The position numbers and the translations under genes were made by a program. A stretch of DNA of 28,339 nt from an uncultured Oscillospiraceae bacterium (GTDB lineage Bacteria > Bacillota > Clostridia > Saccharofermentanales > UBA5734). Positions within the stretch are counted from its first letter, which is position 1. Every line of letters begins with the position of its first letter. Under the pieces are notes generated by a model, which ran no database searches, had not been told where the DNA came from, and saw only the letters and a program-made list of their open reading frames with translations. The DNA is taken from NCBI GenBank assembly GCA_964427795.1, contig CAYRWC010000001.1, positions 1-28,339 on the forward strand, given 5' to 3'. Below, one piece after another: positions 3,256-20,305 of the stretch.

Positions 3256-4242
3256 ATGAAAAAAGAAACGATTCGGTTAATCCGCCTGATCGGCTTGGTT
3301 GTAGTAGTCATTTTGCTTATTCTGATCGGCAAAAGCAGTGTTTTTACCGTTAAGGAAAGCGAACAGGCTGTCATAACGACCTTCGGCAAGTACACCAAAA
3401 CCGTTGAAGCCGGACTGCACGGCAAATTGCCCTGGCCGATTCAATCGGCAATCGTTCTCCCGGTCAATTTAACACAAAAAATCGAATTGGGTTACGGCAG
3501 TTCCTCGGATGGATCGTATTACAGCATACCGGAAGAGAGCATGATGATAACCGGCGATATGAATATCGTCAATATCGATTTCTTTGTCGAATGGAAAATC
3601 AGCGATCCGTTTAAATACCTGTATGCGACAGAAGATCCCAACGCTGTCTTAAAAAACATGATTCAAAGCACAGTCCGCTCTGTTGTCGGGACGAAAAGCA
3701 TTGATGACGTTCTGACAACTGGAAAAATCCAAATCCAAGCCGATGTCAAAGAGATGCTAAAAGAGCGCTTGAGCGAACAGGATATCGGTTTAATGCTGGT
3801 CGATGTCAAAGTCAACGATTCCGAGCCGCCGACAGAGGATGTCGCCAAAGCTTTCCGGGATGTTGAAACAGCCAAGCAGCAGAAAGCAACCGCTCTCAAT
3901 CAGGCTATGGAATATAAGAACAGTAAAATCCCGCAGGCGAATGCGGAAGCTGATAAAATCATCAAAGACGCGGAAGCGGAAAAACAAAGTAAGATCAACG
4001 AAGCTGTCGGCGAACGGGACCGGTTTTTATCCATGTATAACGAGTATGTCAGCTTCCCGGAAATAACGCGGGAGCGCATGTATTTGGAAACACTGGAGAA
4101 AATCCTGCCGGGCATCCAGGTTTATCTGGACGACGGAACAGGCGTGCAGAAGCTGCTGCCTTTGGAGCCTCTGACTCAAAGCAGCACCGCGGCAGCACAG
4201 CCGACAGACGCATCATCCGCTGATGATGCCGCCGGAAATTGA
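3256..4242 (+). CDS. hflK: FtsH protease modulator HflK (SPFH/band 7)
   Basis: AAGGAGG SD, N-terminal TM, TTFGKY..TV.AGLH.K.PWPI, MITGDMNIV, PP.EDV.KAFRDV..A, PEITRERMYLETLEKIL; paired with hflC. Confidence 0.93.
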   Translation: MKKETIRLIRLIGLVVVVILLILIGKSSVFTVKESEQAVITTFGKYTKTVEAGLHGKLPWPIQSAIVLPVNLTQKIELGYGSSSDGSYYSIPEESMMITGDMNIVNIDFFVEWKISDPFKYLYATEDPNAVLKNMIQSTVRSVVGTKSIDDVLTTGKIQIQADVKEMLKERLSEQDIGLMLVDVKVNDSEPPTEDVAKAFRDVETAKQQKATALNQAMEYKNSKIPQANAEADKIIKDAEAEKQSKINEAVGERDRFLSMYNEYVSFPEITRERMYLETLEKILPGIQVYLDDGTGVQKLLPLEPLTQSSTAAAQPTDASSADDAAGN

Positions 4243-4259
4243 ACAAGGAGGGCAACACG

Positions 4260-5129
4260 ATGAAAAAGTGGATTATCACAGCGGCTGTCGCTTTACTGGT
4301 TGTCATTTTGCTCAGCACCTCCCTTTATACGGTCCATGAAGGCGAGTATGTCTATCTGACTCAATTCGGTGCCATCCAAAATATCAAGACCGATGCAGGG
4401 CTGCATATTAAAGTTCCGTTTATCCAGGATGTCAACCATCTGACAAAAAAGCAGATGATTTATGATGTCAAACCGTCGGAAGTTTTAACGGCCGATAAAA
4501 AGGCCATGATCGTCGATAGTTATTCAATTTGGCAGATCAGCGACGTGACGACCTTTATCCGGACGGTCAACAATGTGCCGGAAATGCAAAAGCGCATTGA
4601 TGCCAGCGCGTACAGCGTCATAAAAAATGTAATGGGGCAGATGCAGCAAAGCGATATCATTGCAGACGGCTCAGACAGTAGAACTTCTTTGAATAAACAG
4701 ATAACCGAGCAGGTCGCGGCAAATTTGAAAGATTATGGTGTGGCGATCGTCACCGTTGAAATCAAGCGTTTCGATCTGCCTGAAGACAACACCACAGCCG
4801 TTTATGACCGGATGATTTCCGAACGTTCACAGATGGCCGCTTCCTACAAAGCGGACGGCGATTACGAGGCAGCAAAAATCCGCAATGAAACCGATAAGGA
4901 AGTCAACATTATACTCGGCGAAGCCCAGGCGCAAGCCAGCAAGCTGCAGGGCGAAGGTGAAGAAGAGTATATGAAGACGCTGAAAGAATTGTATAATGAT
5001 CCTCAGAAAGCAGATTTCTATCTTTTTGTCCGTGAACTGGAAGCTCTGGAAAAATCCCTGCAAGGCAAAAAAACGGTGATTTTGGGCGCCGATTCGCCTA
5101 TAGCGAAAATTTTAAATCAGATCGATTGA
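4260..5129 (+). CDS. hflC: FtsH protease modulator HflC
   Basis: AAGGAGG SD; TQFG, GLHIKVPFIQ, VLTADKK.MIVD, IKRFDLP, VYDRMISER, P..ADFY.F.R.LEA. Confidence 0.93.
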   Translation: MKKWIITAAVALLVVILLSTSLYTVHEGEYVYLTQFGAIQNIKTDAGLHIKVPFIQDVNHLTKKQMIYDVKPSEVLTADKKAMIVDSYSIWQISDVTTFIRTVNNVPEMQKRIDASAYSVIKNVMGQMQQSDIIADGSDSRTSLNKQITEQVAANLKDYGVAIVTVEIKRFDLPEDNTTAVYDRMISERSQMAASYKADGDYEAAKIRNETDKEVNIILGEAQAQASKLQGEGEEEYMKTLKELYNDPQKADFYLFVRELEALEKSLQGKKTVILGADSPIAKILNQID

Positions 5130-6541: not shown

Positions 6542-6570
6542 TGGACATGGCGCCAGACCTGTGATATAAG
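6542..6570 (+). promoter_or_regulatory. SigA promoter TGGACA-17-(TGa)TATAAG for the GntR operon
   Basis: -35 at 6542-6547, extended -10 TG at 6562-6563, TATAAG at 6565-6570. Confidence 0.5.
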
Positions 6571-6709
6571 AAAGGCAGAGTTGGTTATGCTTTTCTTGTT
6601 TGCATTATCTATTAAATGTCATGACAAAGCGGACATGATGCATACGAAAAGCTAAAACAAGCCTTTCACCACATTTTGCCGATTTCGGCAATTAAGAAGA
6701 GGCGCCAAG

Positions 6710-7858
6710 ATGATCATCGACCGCCAATCCTCGATTCCTATATATCAGCAAATCCAGCATATTCTGGAGCAAGCGGTCTTATCCGGTGAATATCAGGCCG
6801 GCAGTCTGCTGCCGACCGAAGCCGCCTTATGCGGGCAATACGGCATCAGCCGTTATCCGCTTCGTCAGGCTATGGCCAATTTAGTGCGGGCCGGTCTTTT
6901 AGAACGGACACGCGGTAAAGGTACATATGTACGGACAAATAAGCCGAATGAACAATCCACGCAAGCAGAACAACAGCAGAACCAGACAGAAACCAAGTCG
7001 GTAACTGGCGGCAAACCGTTGATTGCTTTGGTCATACCAGGATTACACGGCGATTATCCTCGGGATATAGCCAGCGGATTTTTGCAATCGGCTGCCGCTC
7101 AGGACTTTGCTGCTATCGTTGCAGTCAGCCGCGATAAGGATGAAGAAATCAACTGTTTGGAACGATGTGTCCGGGCCGGTGTCGCCGGCTTGGCCATATT
7201 CCCGCACGATGGGCATGTTGGCGGCATATTAGCCGGCTTTCAGGCGAAAGGCGTATATATCGCTTTGATCGACCGCAGTATTGAGCTGCCGCGGTTTGAT
7301 TTAATTGCGTCGGACAATATCGGCGGCGGTTTTATGGCCGCCCGCCATTTGCATCAGTGCGGTTTTACAAAAGCTGCTTTCATTTCCGACAGCTGGCCGG
7401 TTTCATCGGTTCAGGAACGCTTGCAGGGATTTCGCCGCGGCATGGAGCAGTACGGGCTCAGCTGGCTGAATCCGCTGCCTGCCGGTTGCGAACCGGCGGT
7501 GGATCAGGTCTTTTCATCGGCGCTGTTCATGGAGTATCTGGATTATTGCCGGAATCAGCAGCCTTGGGGGCTTTTTTGTGAGAATGACGGACTGGCGATA
7601 AAAATGATGACTCTGTTGAAAGAACGTAATTTTATCATCGGCAAAGATGTCGGTATCATCGGCTTCGATAATGATTCAGCCGGACGTTACAGTGTCCCGG
7701 GTTTGACGACGATATCCCAAAACGGCTGGCTGATCGGCGACGCCGCCGCCCGGGCGGTCATCGGCCATATAACCGGCGAAGACAGCCCTTTCAGCCGTCA
7801 TATTTTACCGACACAGATAATCATCCGTCAATCATGCGGCGAAAGCGGCATGATTTAG
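6710..7858 (+). CDS. GntR wHTH plus LacI-type sugar-binding domain regulator (AraR-like architecture)
   Basis: N-terminal PIYQQI..LPTE..L..QYGISR..LRQA..LV..G.LER.RGKGT; C-terminal DNIGGG..AA.HL, ND.LA, IIGFDN, LTTI.Q. Confidence 0.93.
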   Translation: MIIDRQSSIPIYQQIQHILEQAVLSGEYQAGSLLPTEAALCGQYGISRYPLRQAMANLVRAGLLERTRGKGTYVRTNKPNEQSTQAEQQQNQTETKSVTGGKPLIALVIPGLHGDYPRDIASGFLQSAAAQDFAAIVAVSRDKDEEINCLERCVRAGVAGLAIFPHDGHVGGILAGFQAKGVYIALIDRSIELPRFDLIASDNIGGGFMAARHLHQCGFTKAAFISDSWPVSSVQERLQGFRRGMEQYGLSWLNPLPAGCEPAVDQVFSSALFMEYLDYCRNQQPWGLFCENDGLAIKMMTLLKERNFIIGKDVGIIGFDNDSAGRYSVPGLTTISQNGWLIGDAAARAVIGHITGEDSPFSRHILPTQIIIRQSCGESGMI

Positions 7859-14657: not shown

Positions 14658-16010
14658 ATGATGACAGCGAACAGACGGCCATTATGGCGAACATTAATCG
14701 GCACCGGTCTTTGCCTGGCTGTTTTGCTGTTATCTGGTTTGAGTGCCGGTTGTCTGTCTGAATGGTCGTATTATTTGAATACCGGCCGGACGGCCTCATC
14801 TGTTGAGACAATAGAATCAACGTCGACATGGCCCGGCAGCCAGGCTGAACCGTCAAAAACCGGTTTGATGTCCGACTCGGCGGTATCGTCGGCAATGACG
14901 GCATATTCCTCAGCTGCGTCGGCAACCGGCGAATCGTCCGGCTGCGTACCGGCTGATCCGACACGGCTGGACGCCTGTTTTGACGAACAGGCGACGCGGC
15001 TGATCCTGCAAGGCTTGCGGCAGCGGATAGACACGATCAAGCTGGATCAGGCTTTTGCGGCTTATCAGATAAGCGAAGATCAGGTTCGGGACGCCATATC
15101 GCAGGTGTTCAATCTTTACCAAACGATATGCCGGCAACATCCGGAGTACTTTTATCTGAATGGTTCGGCAGAAGTCCAGTATACCTTGATCCAGGGCTTA
15201 AACAGCCGTATCAAGGCGATGAGCCTCAAGCTTGGCTACTGGGACGATCTCGCCGGCTTCGGTCCGGCACAGCTGGAAGACCTGGCCGGCCAGGTCGACC
15301 GGGAAGCGGAGAAAATAGCGGGGCAGATTCGCCAAAAGACCGGCGAACCTTGGGAACAGCTATCCTTGCTGCACGATCTGCTGATTCGGCTCATCGCGTA
15401 CGATCCGGATGCCAGTCAGGCGCATAACCGTGTCGACAGCGCGCTGCTGCAGCATGTGTCCCTATGCCAGGGCTACGCTCAAACCTATCAGTTGATCGGT
15501 CAAAAACTCGGTTATGATATCCGGCTGATCAGCGGTGAAGTGGACGGGGAGGGACATGCCTGGAATCTGGTATGCCTGAACGGCGTTTTTTATCATGTTG
15601 ATGTCACTCATGACGACCCGATACCGGACGGCGGCGCGGACGGCCCACTCCGCCATTGCCATCTTTTCCGCTCGGACGCGCAGATGGCCGTGACGCATCA
15701 GTGGGATCCGTCGCAGTATCCGGCTTGTCCGTCGGACGGCGTGTTTTATTATACCGGCAACGGCCTGACTGTGTCGGGACGGGATGAACTGAAACAAAAG
15801 CTGGCTGATTTTCTGCGCGACGCGGATTTTTCCGGCGGCAGAACCTGCCGCTTGGAGCTTTTATACGCCGGCGGCGATCTGCCGGACAAGGAGCAGCTGG
15901 AAAAAATTCTCAGCGGCGCACTTCAGGAATATGCCTTTTCAGAACCGATATATTACCGTGTAGACAGCAACAAATCCGTTGTGCTGATGGATGTGAGCAC
16001 CCAGGCCTGA
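14658..16010 (+). CDS. Transglutaminase-like (Cys-His-Asp) domain lipoprotein
   Basis: Signal peptide with lipobox-like LSAGC, Ser/Thr-rich linker, LCQGYA (Cys), GHAWN (His), YHVDVTHDD (Asp). Confidence 0.85.
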   Translation: MMTANRRPLWRTLIGTGLCLAVLLLSGLSAGCLSEWSYYLNTGRTASSVETIESTSTWPGSQAEPSKTGLMSDSAVSSAMTAYSSAASATGESSGCVPADPTRLDACFDEQATRLILQGLRQRIDTIKLDQAFAAYQISEDQVRDAISQVFNLYQTICRQHPEYFYLNGSAEVQYTLIQGLNSRIKAMSLKLGYWDDLAGFGPAQLEDLAGQVDREAEKIAGQIRQKTGEPWEQLSLLHDLLIRLIAYDPDASQAHNRVDSALLQHVSLCQGYAQTYQLIGQKLGYDIRLISGEVDGEGHAWNLVCLNGVFYHVDVTHDDPIPDGGADGPLRHCHLFRSDAQMAVTHQWDPSQYPACPSDGVFYYTGNGLTVSGRDELKQKLADFLRDADFSGGRTCRLELLYAGGDLPDKEQLEKILSGALQEYAFSEPIYYRVDSNKSVVLMDVSTQA

Positions 16011-16030
16011 GTCTGGAGGTGAACGAGCCG

Positions 16031-17110
16031 ATGATTTTGTTCGTCCTCAATCCCGGATCGACTTCAACGAAAACGGCTCTGTTTCGGGATGGAAAATGCT
16101 TATTCCGGGAAACGGCTTACCATTCGGACCGGCAGATGCAGAAAGCGTCCCGGCTTGCCGACCAGCTGCCGATGCGCCTGATGGCTGTGAAAAAAGCTTA
16201 TCTGGCGGCACTGAAACAGGAAGGCGTCGGTTCGGCGGAGATCGATGCTTTTGTCGGCCGCGGCGGTTTGCTGCACAGCATGCCCAGCGGTACATACCGG
16301 GTCAATCAAGACATGTTGGATGATCTGCACGCCGCGCGCTACGGCGAGCATGCCAGCAATCTGGGCGCCATAATCGCAGCCCGTCTGGCCGAACCACTCG
16401 CCAAACCGGCTTTTGTGGTCGATCCTCCGTCGGTTGATGAGATGGACGATCTGGCCCGCTATACCGGTTTGCCGTCGATCCGCCGGCGTTCGGCTTTCCA
16501 CGCGTTGAACCAGAAAGCGGCGGCCCGTCTGGCGGCCGGCAGGATCGGCCGATCATATCAGGACTGTTCGATGATCGTGGCGCATTTGGGCGGCGGGATT
16601 TCTGTCGCGATGCATCAAAACGGCCTTGTGACCGATGTCAACGACGCGTTGGAGGAAGGCCCGTTTTCACCGGAACGGGCCGGTAGTCTGCCTTCCTTGC
16701 AGCTGCTGGCCTTAATGTCCGGATCCGGGAAATCGGTTTCAGACATGCGGCGCCTCTTGATTACCCAGAGCGGGCTTTACGCTTATACCGGCACAACGGA
16801 TTGCCGGGTAGTCGAGGATCTGGCCCAAACCAGAACGGATTATCGCGAACTCCTGGAAGCCATGGCTTATCAGATAGCGAAATCGATCGCCGCTTTGTCC
16901 GCCGCCGTATCCGGTCATGTCGATGCGATCGTACTGACCGGAGGTTTGGCTTATAGCCGGTTATTGACGGGCTGGATAAAAGAGCGGATTGATTTTCTCG
17001 GGCCTGTTCAGATTATTCCCGGCGAACACGAATTGGAAGCCTTGGCTGCGGGAGCCGAACGGGTGCTGAAGGGGGAGGAAGAACCTCGAATTTACGTTAA
17101 GGAGGCATGA
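16031..17110 (+). CDS. buk: Butyrate/branched-chain carboxylate kinase
   Basis: LNPGSTSTK, GRGGLL, GEHASNLG, FHALNQKA, AHLGGGISV, GPFSPERAG, PGE.ELEALA; GGAGGTGA SD before ATG 16031. Confidence 0.96.
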   Translation: MILFVLNPGSTSTKTALFRDGKCLFRETAYHSDRQMQKASRLADQLPMRLMAVKKAYLAALKQEGVGSAEIDAFVGRGGLLHSMPSGTYRVNQDMLDDLHAARYGEHASNLGAIIAARLAEPLAKPAFVVDPPSVDEMDDLARYTGLPSIRRRSAFHALNQKAAARLAAGRIGRSYQDCSMIVAHLGGGISVAMHQNGLVTDVNDALEEGPFSPERAGSLPSLQLLALMSGSGKSVSDMRRLLITQSGLYAYTGTTDCRVVEDLAQTRTDYRELLEAMAYQIAKSIAALSAAVSGHVDAIVLTGGLAYSRLLTGWIKERIDFLGPVQIIPGEHELEALAAGAERVLKGEEEPRIYVKEA

Positions 17111-17112
17111 GC

Positions 17113-18051
17113 ATGATCAATAGTCTCGGTCAGATCGAAGATCTCGTCCGCGGCCGTCCTCCGGGACGAATCGCCGTGGCGGCGGCTCATGACGACCATG
17201 TCTTGCAGTCGGTTTATGAAGTATACCGAAAGGGCTATGCCCATCCGATTCTGATCGGCGATAAAGAGAAAATCCTGCGGCTGGCCGACCAGCTGTCTCT
17301 GGATGTTTCGCCTCTGCCGATGATCAAGGAACTGGATGAACGGAGAAGCGCGGATATCGCTGTAAATCTGGTCAATAACGACGAAGCGGACACCATCATG
17401 AAAGGACTTCTGCAGACGGCCGATCTGCTTAAGGCCGTACTGGAGCGCGAAAAAGGCTTGCGAGCCAATATGCTGATCAGTCATGTCGGGCTCTATGAAA
17501 TCGCCGGCTATCCCAAATTGCTTTTCATAACCGATGCCGGAATCAATATTGCTCCGGACTTGAAACAGAAAGTGGAAATCATCCGCAACGCTCTGGATGT
17601 GGCTCATGAATTAGGCATTGCCAAACCGAAAATAGCTGTTCTGGCCGCCGTGGAAACCGTCAATCCGGCGATGCCCAGCACGCTGGACGCGGCGGCTCTG
17701 GCCAAAATGGCGCAGCGTGGTCAGATAAGGGACTGCCTGATCGACGGCCCGCTGGCTCTGGACAATGCGATTGACCCCGCGGCGGCCGGGCACAAACAGA
17801 TTGTCAGCGAGGTTGCCGGCGATGCCGACATTCTCTTGGCGCCGGATATCGAAGCCGGCAATATCCTGGTCAAATCGCTGGTCTTTTTATATCATGCCCG
17901 TTCCTGCGGCATGATTACCGGCGCCCGCGTGCCCCTGATTGTCACTTCGCGCGCCGACAGCAGCGAAGCCAAGTATTATTCGATTTTGCTGGCTTTAGCC
18001 ATGCTGCGGCAGCCCGGCGCTGCCGACACGCAGAGAAGGGAGCTGTTGTAA
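17113..18051 (+). CDS. ptb: Phosphate butyryltransferase / branched-chain phosphotransacylase
   Basis: IAVAAA.D..VL, IMKGLLQTAD, ITDAGINIAP, IDGPLALDNAI, PDIEAGN.L.KS, LTSRADS-like VTSRADS. SD at 17101-17105 favours ATG 17113. Confidence 0.95.
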   Translation: MINSLGQIEDLVRGRPPGRIAVAAAHDDHVLQSVYEVYRKGYAHPILIGDKEKILRLADQLSLDVSPLPMIKELDERRSADIAVNLVNNDEADTIMKGLLQTADLLKAVLEREKGLRANMLISHVGLYEIAGYPKLLFITDAGINIAPDLKQKVEIIRNALDVAHELGIAKPKIAVLAAVETVNPAMPSTLDAAALAKMAQRGQIRDCLIDGPLALDNAIDPAAAGHKQIVSEVAGDADILLAPDIEAGNILVKSLVFLYHARSCGMITGARVPLIVTSRADSSEAKYYSILLALAMLRQPGAADTQRRELL

Positions 18052-18552
18052 ATGGCTGGTGCGAATAAAACCATTATTTCGGTCTGGGTCGAAGATAAAC
18101 CGGGTATCCTCTGGCATGTCACCCAGTTATTTGGCGAACAAAATTTCAACATCGAAAGCTTGGCTGTCGGCAGTACGGAAAAACCGGGCATTGCCCGCAT
18201 GACCATCATTGTGGCCGGCGATAACCGTGCCGTGGACGCCGTCCTGAATCAATTGAACCGCATGGCCGATCTGGTCAAGGTCAAACAGATCGACAATGAA
18301 GATTCGGTATCCATGGAGCTGGCTTTGGTTATGGTCGACGCTCCGGATGATAAGAAAACCGATATTATTAATCTGGTCAATGTTTTCCGCGCCCGCATTG
18401 TCGATGTGGCCAGCCGCTCCATGACTGTAGCGGTTGCCGGCGCGCCGGTCAAGCTTCAGGCCTTGATCGATCTGCTCAGGCCCTTCGGCATCCAGGAAAT
18501 CGTCCGTTCGGGCACGATTGCCATCGATCGCGGGAATAAAGAACGGCTTTAG
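18052..18552 (+). CDS. ilvN: Acetolactate synthase small (regulatory) subunit homologue, divergent, with no large subunit nearby
   Basis: ACT domain (NIESLAVG.TE.PG.ARMTI) plus ALS_ss_C (ELALV.V, FRARIVDVA, G...K.QALI.LL.PFGI.EIVRSG.IAI.RG). Confidence 0.88.
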   Translation: MAGANKTIISVWVEDKPGILWHVTQLFGEQNFNIESLAVGSTEKPGIARMTIIVAGDNRAVDAVLNQLNRMADLVKVKQIDNEDSVSMELALVMVDAPDDKKTDIINLVNVFRARIVDVASRSMTVAVAGAPVKLQALIDLLRPFGIQEIVRSGTIAIDRGNKERL

Positions 18553-18559
18553 CGGATGA

Positions 18560-19117
18560 TCATTCCGCGGGATAGTCGTTGATGATCGTGGCAGTCATGG
18601 GCTGCGGCTCTTCATTGATGTAGGCGTGGGGGGCAGACGCGTCGAAAGTCAGGGCGTCGCCGGCTTGCAGGATATGCCGTCTGCCGTTTATGTCCAGGAC
18701 CAGACTGCCGCTGCCGACCAGGATATATTCTCGGGATTTGTCCGTATGGCCGATCGATGTATAACTTGAATGAGGTTCCATATCGAGCCGGAACAATTCG
18801 AAGCTTCTGCGCAGAGCCGTTTGAAAATAGCAGGAAATGCGATATGTGCCGTCTTCGCTGCTTTGTTCCTGCGCATCGGCACGGGTGATAACCTGCGTGT
18901 CCGGTTGATGCTCGTCAATCAGCAGGGTATAAGGAACCTGCAATCCTTTGGCGATTTTCCAGATCGTGTTGATCGTCGGATTGGTATCGCCTTTCTCAAT
19001 CTGCGACAGAATGACTTTACTGACTTGAGCCAGCTCTGCCAGCCGGCTCAGGCTCAGATTGCGTTCCTGACGCAGCCGTTTTAAATTTTCCGCTATATTA
19101 GCGCCAATATTCTTCAT
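18560..19117 (-). CDS. XRE-family HTH plus cupin regulator (PuuR/SutR-like)
   Basis: IAENLKRLRQERNLSLSRLAE...SK..LSQIE.G.TNPTI.T.WKIA.GL; C-terminal cupin with EYI.V..G and H.Y.N. Confidence 0.93.
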   Translation of the reverse strand: MKNIGANIAENLKRLRQERNLSLSRLAELAQVSKVILSQIEKGDTNPTINTIWKIAKGLQVPYTLLIDEHQPDTQVITRADAQEQSSEDGTYRISCYFQTALRRSFELFRLDMEPHSSYTSIGHTDKSREYILVGSGSLVLDINGRRHILQAGDALTFDASAPHAYINEEPQPMTATIINDYPAE

Positions 19118-19136
19118 TTTCGCACCTTTTCATCTG

Positions 19137-19165
19137 TTGACAGAGATCGCGGTCCCTTGTAAGAT
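19137..19165 (+). promoter_or_regulatory. SigA promoter TTGACA-17-TAAGAT for azlCD
   Basis: Perfect -35 at 19137-19142, -10 at 19160-19165. Confidence 0.6.
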
Positions 19166-19256
19166 AGACACGATCATAAAATATACCGTTACGATCGTTT
19201 ACTATATTGTACAGCAAGCGATGGAACCCGGCAAGCGCCCGGTGAGGAGGATCTGC

Positions 19257-19979
19257 TTGACTAAACGGACAAAGCTGCTCGAAGCCCTGAAGGCGGCATT
19301 CCCCAAAACCCTGCCGGTTTTAGCCGGTTTTGCTTTTCTGGGCATGGCATACGGCATCTTGATGAGTGCGAAAGGTTACGGCGCGGCGTGGCCGTTCCTC
19401 ATCAGCGTGACAGCATTTTGCGGCAGCATGCAGTTTGTCGCCATAACGCTGCTGACCGGCGCTTTTAATCCCTGGCTGGCTTTGGCCTTAACCCTGGTTG
19501 TCAATGCCCGGCATCTGTTTTACGGTATCTCGCTGCTGAACCGTTATAAAGGTCTGGGCCGGCTGAAACCTTTTTTGATTTTTACCCTTTGTGATGAAAC
19601 CTTTTCTCTGGTCTGCAATACGGATGTACCCAAAGATATCGACCGCGGCGCATTTTATTTTTTTATATCGCTGCTTGATTATAGTTATTGGGTTATTGGT
19701 TCTCTGGTTGGCGGTCTGGCCGGCAGCCTGTTTCAAATTAAAATCCAGGGCCTCGATTTTGTCTTGACCGCCTTGTTTGCGGTGATTTTTCTGGATCAGT
19801 GGCAAAAACGGCAAAATCGTCCGGCAGCTGCCGTCGGTATTGCCGGAGCAGCGCTATGTCTTCTGATTTTCGGACCGAACCGCTTTATGATCCCGGCTTT
19901 GCTGCTGATTACCCTGACCCTTTATTTCGGCGGGCGGAAATTCGATAAACAACAAATAGAGGAGGCCGGGAAATTATGA
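19257..19979 (+). CDS. azlC: AzlC branched-chain amino acid exporter permease
   Basis: P.LAGF.FLG.AYG, F.GSMQF, VNARHLFYG, F.L.DETFS; GAGGAGG SD before TTG 19257. Confidence 0.93.
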   Translation: MTKRTKLLEALKAAFPKTLPVLAGFAFLGMAYGILMSAKGYGAAWPFLISVTAFCGSMQFVAITLLTGAFNPWLALALTLVVNARHLFYGISLLNRYKGLGRLKPFLIFTLCDETFSLVCNTDVPKDIDRGAFYFFISLLDYSYWVIGSLVGGLAGSLFQIKIQGLDFVLTALFAVIFLDQWQKRQNRPAAAVGIAGAALCLLIFGPNRFMIPALLLITLTLYFGGRKFDKQQIEEAGKL

Positions 19980-20305
19980 CGCTGTCTCCTTTAGAAACAA
20001 TCCTGACCATCGCTGTGATTACCGCCGGCACCATGGCGACCCGGTTCCTGCCATTTTTGATTTTCCCGGAAAACAAACCGGTTCCGAAGGCTGTCGCTTA
20101 TTTAGGCCGGACTCTGCCATGCGCCATGGCCGGCTTTCTGGTTGTCTACTGCCTGAAAAATGTATCCGTGCTGACGGCACCCTTCGGTTTGCCTGAAACC
20201 GCGGCTTTGATCTGTCTTGCCGCCCTGCATTTGTGGAAACATAACGCCCTGCTCAGCATCGGCGTCGGCACCGCCGTGTATTGCCTGCTCATCGGCGTCG
20301 TTTAG
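19976..20305 (+). CDS. azlD: AzlD branched-chain amino acid exporter small subunit
   Basis: T.ATRFLPF, YLG..LP.A....LVVYCL, HLWK.N.LLSI..GT; ATGA overlap with azlC. Confidence 0.93.
   Translation: MTLSPLETILTIAVITAGTMATRFLPFLIFPENKPVPKAVAYLGRTLPCAMAGFLVVYCLKNVSVLTAPFGLPETAALICLAALHLWKHNALLSIGVGTAVYCLLIGVV

Follow-up and report, generated by a model that had tools for sequence, protein, structure and literature searches.

Which enzyme does a homologue of the AHAS small subunits serve when its gene stands directly behind that of a phosphate acyltransferase? This question is raised by an IlvN-like protein, here called IlvNx, whose gene lies in the window, by which we mean the whole stretch of 28,339 nucleotides that was analysed (Table 1). 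As read from the sequence, the ATG at 18052 abuts the ptb stop codon (TAA, 18049-18051) with no gap, and Pfam scans of all open reading frames of at least 150 aa revealed no ilvB, ilvC or ilvD in the window; both points had been made in a first-pass annotation of this DNA and are confirmed here. Upstream, the transglutaminase-core gene ends 8 nt before buk, and the buk stop overlaps the ptb start by 4 nt (ATGA, 17107-17110). Promoter and terminator scans of the tgl-buk-ptb-ilvNx run gave nothing convincing. Beyond azlC-azlD, the window holds two convergent ABC exporter genes.

Table 1. Positions of the IlvN-like gene, its domains and its neighbours in the window.
Feature	Position	Strand	Remarks
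Transglutaminase-core protein	14658..16010	+	Pfam Transglut_core; N-terminal lipoprotein-type signal LSAGC
buk, butyrate (short/branched acyl) kinase	16019..17110	+	GTG start; NF002834, TIGR02707
ptb, phosphate acyltransferase, distinct Ptb subfamily	17107..18051	+	Pfam PTA_PTB
Shine-Dalgarno AAGGGAG of the IlvN-like gene	18036..18042	+	within the ptb 3' end, 9 nt upstream of the ATG
IlvN-like gene (IlvNx)	18052..18552	+	166 aa, full-length
N-terminal ACT domain of IlvNx	18067..18291	+	residues 6-80; Pfam ACT_AHAS_ss (PF22629) at residues 9-75
C-terminal ALS_ss_C domain of IlvNx	18316..18534	+	residues 89-161; PF10369, 93.8 bits
XRE-HTH/cupin regulator, convergent	18560..19117	-	Pfam HTH_3 and Cupin_2
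azlC-azlD, branched-chain amino acid exporter family	19137..20305	+	Pfam AzlC, AzlD; TIGR00346

IlvNx scores above both AHAS small-subunit equivalog cut-offs (179 bits against 119 for NF008864; 170.8 bits against 56.9 for TIGR00119), so its assignment to this family is not a matter of chance. Its AlphaFold2 model (pLDDT 87.9) places the secondary structure of the ACT domain at residues 6-14 (beta1), 19-29 (alpha1), 33-41 (beta2), 47-55 (beta3), 58-69 (alpha2) and 75-80 (beta4). Foldseek matched the model to the small subunits of T. maritima (2FGC, TM 0.88), E. coli (IlvH, 2F1F, TM 0.87) and A. thaliana (6VZ8, TM 0.86-0.88), and over the solved structures 2FGC, 2F1F, 6VZ8 and 2PC6, N. europaea included, TM values were 0.85-0.88 at sequence identities of 33-40%. 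The ALS_ss_C domain stays near that of canonical small subunits, with motifs such as FRARIVDV and RSG.IA..RG, and the order of ACT and ALS_ss_C as well as the similar length are common to IlvNx and the IlvH/IlvN proteins of the AHAS isozyme III type. By sequence and predicted fold, IlvNx is a full-length IlvH-type protein. One reading of the locus is accordingly that IlvNx is an alternative AHAS subunit which binds IlvB, responds to effectors differently (for example by being valine-insensitive through Trp-21), is co-expressed with buk-ptb and changes AHAS regulation whenever the operon is on. The family scores and the fold speak for this reading, which we nevertheless consider rather unlikely in light of gene linkage and of the residues that IlvNx has lost.

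The gene had been described as an orphan paralogue, with the proposal to look for a canonical ilvBN elsewhere in the genome. A canonical small-subunit gene is present: in the same assembly (553 contigs, 90% complete), contig C96 carries a canonical ilvN (VENRAGVLTRVTSLFARRGYNIESL) followed by ilvC, and a partial ilvB is found on C492. IlvNx is thus not the only IlvN of its genome, and because the copy on C96 has the canonical motif, the substitutions in IlvNx are not lineage-wide. The canonical ilvN-ilvC pair on C96 (L001, 220-1793) is preceded by mscL and not by ilvB, and in a genome of the same genus (G001, C21:88764-92157) ilvB faces ilvN-ilvC convergently from the opposite strand, at a distance of about 1.2 kb; in this lineage, the canonical small-subunit gene is therefore also uncoupled from ilvB.

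A database search separated the homologues of IlvNx into a tight group of proteins of 164-168 aa that are 59-95% identical to it, a second tier at about 47-56% identity and, beyond these, ordinary small subunits. The first tier shares the motif SVWVED.xGVLWHVxQLFGExNCNIESL, the second reads SIWVENQAGVLSKV..FGE, and the canonical motif is SVLVEN..GVL.RV..LF.RRGFNI.SL. The clade comprises at least 78 database clusters and occurs in 36 further Clostridia species genomes; the names of the carrier MAGs include Saccharofermentans, Mageeibacillus, Oscillospiraceae, Clostridiaceae, Thermoclostridium, Eubacterium and HGW-Firmicutes. In public sequencing runs, holders of the clade were low-depth Logan contigs from sludge, soil and wastewater metagenomes, and the RNA-labelled runs among them are probably DNA.

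This clade differs from the less similar IlvN-type genes in its neighbour. On six contigs that carry members of both tiers, the arrangement was (buk)-ptb-IlvN-like throughout, and the outer flanks of two of them (L010, L011) were unrelated. A locus scan with one genome per species yielded 80 loci, 36 of which encode a protein at least 44% identical to IlvNx. In all 35 informative loci of this group ptb lies directly upstream, the remaining one being cut by a contig end, and ilvB or ilvC within 6 kb was found in none of the 35. At the other 44 loci, with identities of at most 46%, the gene is invariably preceded by ilvB and/or followed by ilvC, and ptb is absent. In a quick maximum-likelihood tree, the ptb-linked IlvN-like proteins fall on one side of a branch with an SH-aLRT of 98, and in a set of 116 Ptbs those linked to them group as a single clade (SH-aLRT 100, branch length 0.5). 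The comparison of phylogeny and neighbourhood suggested in the first-pass annotation thus yields a distinct IlvN-like clade that stands behind a single monophyletic Ptb subfamily. For an alternative AHAS subunit one would not expect a gene that, unlike those of all less similar homologues, is never adjacent to ilvB or ilvC and that is strictly co-inherited with one Ptb clade; nor is there an obvious physiological reason why such a subunit should be tied to a Ptb gene for so long.

The linkage is specific on the side of Ptb as well. In 80 metagenome loci of other Ptbs (43-55% identical), no IlvN-like gene occurred within 4 kb, and the further Ptb paralogues in genomes of the family (at most 42% identity) have no IlvN-like neighbour. 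The distance between ptb and the IlvN-like gene varies from -4 to 142 nt (median 18.5) over the clade loci, and the IlvN-like gene has its own GGAGG-type Shine-Dalgarno sequence at every one of them, from which it follows that membership in the operon is general while tight coupling is not. The translational coupling proposed earlier is hence in keeping with the abutting codons of the window but is not general across the clade.

The usual gene order is buk-ptb-ilvN-like, with buk upstream of ptb in 32 of the 35 clade loci, and the partner of IlvNx could accordingly be Buk, or a complex of Buk and Ptb, with an ACT subunit acting on an acyl-phosphate-forming kinase as in aspartate kinase. The overlap of buk with ptb in the window is in line with this idea, and the next-best structural matches of IlvNx include ACT regulatory subunits of aspartate kinase, although at a TM of only about 0.4. 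However, buk is missing from the loci L044, L055 and L058 (and L006/L007), the respective genomes having buk copies elsewhere, and the ptb-IlvNx pair is intact there. Moreover, the gene that abuts IlvNx is ptb, and at the clade loci Ptb is better conserved than Buk (55-93% against 45-89% identity). We therefore consider Buk an improbable partner.

A survey of all 54 species genomes of the GTDB family, in which the Ptb subtype was defined by at least 62% identity, detected this Ptb in 29 and IlvNx in 27 genomes, with both genes adjacent on the same strand in 26. Of the exceptions, G018 has IlvNx and ptb both cut at contig ends, and in G092 ptb is at a contig start. In G082 the ptb match ends about 200 nt before the contig end and the MAG contains no IlvN-like gene; here (L209, C272, 2003-3053) the Ptb match stops at residue 289 and gives way to unrelated sequence up to the contig end, possibly owing to a rearrangement or a chimeric contig. 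Within genera the presence of ptb-IlvNx is patchy (5/8, 5/8 and 4/8 genomes), which implies joint gain or loss of the two genes.

These patterns also bear on the idea that IlvNx is a free-standing ligand-binding ACT protein that has a different enzymatic partner or none, acting for instance as a buffer or on a distant target, and that merely shares transcriptional control with ptb. No fused Ptb-IlvN protein was present among the longer homologues, where the only fusions were of IlvN and IlvC; we rate this search as weak evidence, and, together with a co-fold score (ipSAE 0.37, see below) that is weak, it is what favours a free-standing protein. Against it, the adjacency to ptb outlasts both a full turnover of the flanks and the loss of buk, the two proteins form matching monophyletic clades, and they are lost jointly within genera. 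Since such patterns are typical of subunits and not of mere co-regulation, we give this explanation little credence.

Further features of the loci concern the state and the surroundings of the genes. An in-frame stop interrupts ptb next to an intact IlvN-like gene in L024 (5093-5995, at residue 104), G017 (C10:7015-7929, TAA) and G072 (C68:17211-18113, TAG), which could reflect decay or assembly errors. In L028 the buk match consists of two overlapping segments (3990-4790 and 4718-5065) that differ in frame, which points to either a frameshift or an assembly error. A homologue of the transglutaminase-core protein is encoded upstream of buk/ptb in L006-L009, L012, L023-L041, L056 and L058; in the nearer sub-clade, to which IlvNx of the window belongs, this lipoprotein gene is conserved directly before buk, or before ptb at loci without buk; the deeper sub-clade lacks it, and a functional link is not apparent. 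The XRE-HTH/cupin regulator lies outside the conserved module and is absent from the same-genus locus L023, in which azlC-azlD directly follow the IlvN-like gene on the same strand (6570-7642), whereas in the corresponding part of the window (18560-20305) the XRE/cupin gene lies in between. We had considered azlCD as a conserved theme of branched-chain amino acid (BCAA) metabolism and rejected it, as these genes are adjacent only in this genus.

If IlvNx had no AHAS to serve in some of its hosts, a role in this enzyme could be excluded. No such host was found: ilvB is present in 36 of 36 carrier genomes, in line with an alternative AHAS subunit, and at least one canonical ilvN is present in 34 of them. 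Among the 26 genomes of the nearer sub-clade, about 24 have as many ilvB as canonical ilvN genes (1:1 or 2:2). Because these counts already match, the ptb-linked copy is supernumerary in this sub-clade, which argues against the need for another AHAS subunit. In the deeper sub-clade, two ilvB genes are accompanied by only one canonical ilvN in several genomes, and ilvB often lacks an adjacent ilvN. In G056, a genome of 4.3 Mb, no IlvN-family gene other than the ptb-linked copy was found; the ilvD-ilvB genes of this genome (L103, C18, 2725-8470) precede an AraC/Cache regulator, and the locus contains no small-subunit gene. The excess of ilvB in the deeper sub-clade and the case of G056 keep the AHAS reading alive. 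Overall, the genes of AHAS small subunits are linked to ilvB/ilvC, whereas that of IlvNx is always found behind ptb and is supernumerary beside a canonical ilvN.

The gene had further been proposed to encode a rewritten effector pocket. Residues were compared by aligning IlvNx with E. coli IlvH (PDB 2F1F), in which the IlvH number equals the window residue minus 4. The substitutions that had been listed against E. coli IlvH in the first-pass annotation (N11D, S17W, R18H, G21Q, Q25E and R26Q, in IlvH numbering) were all reproduced, the IlvH sequence used there being correct, and the alignment adds L8W, S24G and G27N. The valine site of IlvH consists of L9, N11, L16, N29 and V35 (Kaplun et al. 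2006, as quoted in PMC11893703). Together with G14, these residues correspond to V13, D15, L20, N33, V39 and G18 of IlvNx, and the valine-site positions are invariant or conservatively replaced in the clade, with variation between Asp and Asn at residue 15. An Asp at the N11 position is natural in the valine-sensitive IlvN of C. glutamicum (PMC11893703). We thus abandoned the idea of a rewritten pocket: V13, D15, G18, L20, N33 and V39 are retained, and the changes that define the clade lie outside the pocket.

Another point of the first-pass annotation, namely that replacement of IlvH residue 17 by an aromatic one is a known valine-resistance change, is borne out by the documented feedback-resistant allele ilvH G14D+S17F, which is in use. 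The allele lends some support to a feedback-insensitive AHAS subunit, but Trp-21 and His-22 set only the nearer sub-clade apart from AHAS small subunits; the deeper ptb-linked sub-clade has Ser and Lys at these positions, so Trp-21 cannot be the point of the clade. W21 and H22 may modulate the ligand response within the nearer sub-clade and are not clade-defining.

Which residues do define the clade was examined in a column comparison of 35 distinct clade sequences with 20 canonical paralogues of the same genomes and 39 other ilvB/C-linked proteins. In the canonical sets, 25 positions show at least 90% invariance; the clade keeps 14 of these and has lost 11. Those kept (V13, G18, L20, L26, N33, I34, S36, G40, T51, E89, D118, R152, T153 and G154) are the pocket and the core of the fold. 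The non-conservative losses affect R29 and R30 at the end of alpha1, Q63, Q67 and K70 in and just after alpha2, and R88 and K94 on beta5, the first strand of the C-terminal domain. Retention of the canonical residue in the clade is 0% for R29 and R30 and 3% each for Q63 and K70, while R88 and K94 are Met in most members. In addition to these seven replacements, an invariant Trp-12 separates the clade from AHAS small subunits. The loss of helix residues that are invariant in canonical proteins (R29, R30, Q63, Q67 and K70) speaks against an alternative AHAS subunit. According to PMC12994207, which summarises plant work on 6VZ8, the helices of the AHAS ACT domain bend and act on the bound dimer of the catalytic subunit; going by this secondary description rather than by coordinates, we infer that the residues lost from IlvNx mark the surface by which AHAS small subunits contact their catalytic partner. 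The retained pocket residues, the losses on the two ACT helices and one strand and the role ascribed to these helices therefore suggest a protein with its pocket kept and its docking face changed. At the level of sequence, the valine-type pocket core is shown to be retained and the helical ACT residues to be swapped across the clade, and IlvNx is predicted to have kept the ability to bind a branched-chain amino acid similar to valine.

On the other side of the proposed pair, Ptb is a recognizable member of its family (158 bits to Pfam PF01515; 274 bits to the C. acetobutylicum PTB, 7VG9). It keeps equivalents of eight of the nine conserved CaPTB residues named in PMC9706017 (D217, K228, N250, K254, S279, R280, S283 and E285), the remaining one, K186, being replaced by Ala, and judging from these residues it looks catalytically intact. 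Its acyl specificity is not fixed by family membership, because its scores fall short of the NCBIfam ptb equivalog cut-offs (373 of 399 for NF004472 and 365 of 410 for another). The kinase, by comparison, is well above its own (449 bits against 222 for NF002834; 410 bits against 289 for TIGR02707). No acyl-CoA dehydrogenase (PF00441) was detected in the genome of the window (90% complete), in its 98%-complete congener G001, or in G011 and G100, while G015 and G101 have one. Given the missing PF00441 match, buk-ptb is unlikely to end a classic butyryl-CoA pathway in several carriers, an argument that is suggestive only. The Ptb and Buk enzymes of Listeria take branched substrates and can supply acyl-CoA primers, as reported in refs 50 and 51 cited by PMC12751926, and by analogy a branched-chain role of Ptb-Buk is plausible here. 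The bkd cluster of Bacillus/Listeria and the Ptb-Buk pair of solventogenic clostridia comprise the same enzyme families; in contrast to these, the genes described here have the order buk-ptb, lack adjacent bkd genes and encode a separate Ptb clade.

A direct contact of the two proteins was assessed by co-folding, with alignments of 33 rows for Ptb and 53 rows for IlvNx. Ptb and IlvNx gave an ipSAE of 0.37 (runs of 0.26, 0.40 and 0.37), whereas the best of three controls scored 0.00; the runs agreed in at least 79% of contacts, and the pLDDT of the partners was at least 84. In calibration, 58 of 80 solved complexes passed the co-fold mark, as did 2 of 110 mismatched pairs, and since scores of at most 0.60 comprise 7 of the 80 solved complexes and both of the passing mismatches, a score in this range is more often wrong than right unless the prior is strong. 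Taken with the strong genomic prior, the predicted complex lends mild support to binding of IlvNx to Ptb.

Based on these findings, we propose that IlvNx is a duplicated AHAS small subunit that has been recruited as a ligand-sensing regulatory subunit of the upstream Ptb, an interpretation of sequence data to which we give roughly an even chance. Of the two possibilities raised at the outset, linkage, co-inheritance and matching clades favour an ACT regulator repurposed for Ptb/Buk over an AHAS subunit swapped in when the operon is on. In this working model, the duplicated and re-surfaced ACT + ALS_ss_C protein would no longer serve acetolactate synthase and would instead, via Ptb, control the interconversion of short or branched acyl-CoA, acyl-phosphate and free acid by Buk-Ptb. 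Its ACT dimer would bind a branched-chain amino acid at the retained pocket, presumably one similar to valine, and the altered helical face would dock on Ptb in place of IlvB. Ligand binding would then alter Ptb activity. We would favour inhibition by analogy with AHAS, which would amount to feedback on the salvage of branched short-chain acids to acyl-CoA; the sign of the effect, like the nature of the ligand, is conjectural. As an outcome, the status of branched-chain amino acids would be coupled to the flux through branched acyl-CoA and acyl-phosphate. That a partner-switched paralogue of an AHAS small subunit makes Ptb allosterically responsive to BCAAs in this way is a tentative extension of the proposal, possible rather than probable.

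The logic proposed for IlvNx, a small ACT dimer that binds an amino acid, sits on a catalytic protein and relays ligand occupancy, resembles that of the ACT subunits and domains of aspartate kinase (beta subunit), 3-phosphoglycerate dehydrogenase and PheA, which belong to other ACT subfamilies and match IlvNx at a TM of about 0.4. We know of no ACT partner of the characterised Ptb-Buk enzymes, and the literature searched contained no published ACT or IlvN partner of Ptb/Buk. Likewise, neither to our knowledge nor in that literature has an ACT subunit been described on a phosphotransacylase. A regulatory subunit is not part of the description of the C. acetobutylicum PTB (PMC9706017).

All clade members are annotated as acetolactate synthase small subunit, which would be wrong for the whole subfamily if they are regulators of Ptb. 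Metabolic reconstructions for Clostridia of the digester, sludge and gut type would then have to be revised, both for BCAA synthesis and for the formation of butyrate or branched acids. The proposal would further imply an undescribed link, in anaerobic Clostridia, between the BCAA pool and the metabolism of branched short-chain acyl-CoA, acyl-phosphate and fatty acids, and IlvNx would be the first IlvH fold to regulate a non-ThDP enzyme. It would represent a natural allosteric module in which the ligand pocket was kept and the docking surface exchanged, of relevance to the evolution of allostery and to the building of BCAA-responsive switches. IlvNx and Ptb are two small soluble proteins and hence amenable to standard assays.

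Some IlvN-type proteins outside the ptb-linked clade also show unusual arrangements. P0121-P0127 are natural fusions of an IlvN-type small subunit with ketol-acid reductoisomerase of about 510 aa, apart from P0124, a fusion of 722 aa with an additional TPP_enzyme_C domain. Finally, ilv operons of Lachnospiraceae contain two IlvN-like genes between ilvB and ilvC, which are arranged in tandem in L090 (6001-7169) and L097 (6001-7042) and lie about 3 kb apart in L096 (6001-6465 and 9438-9908).
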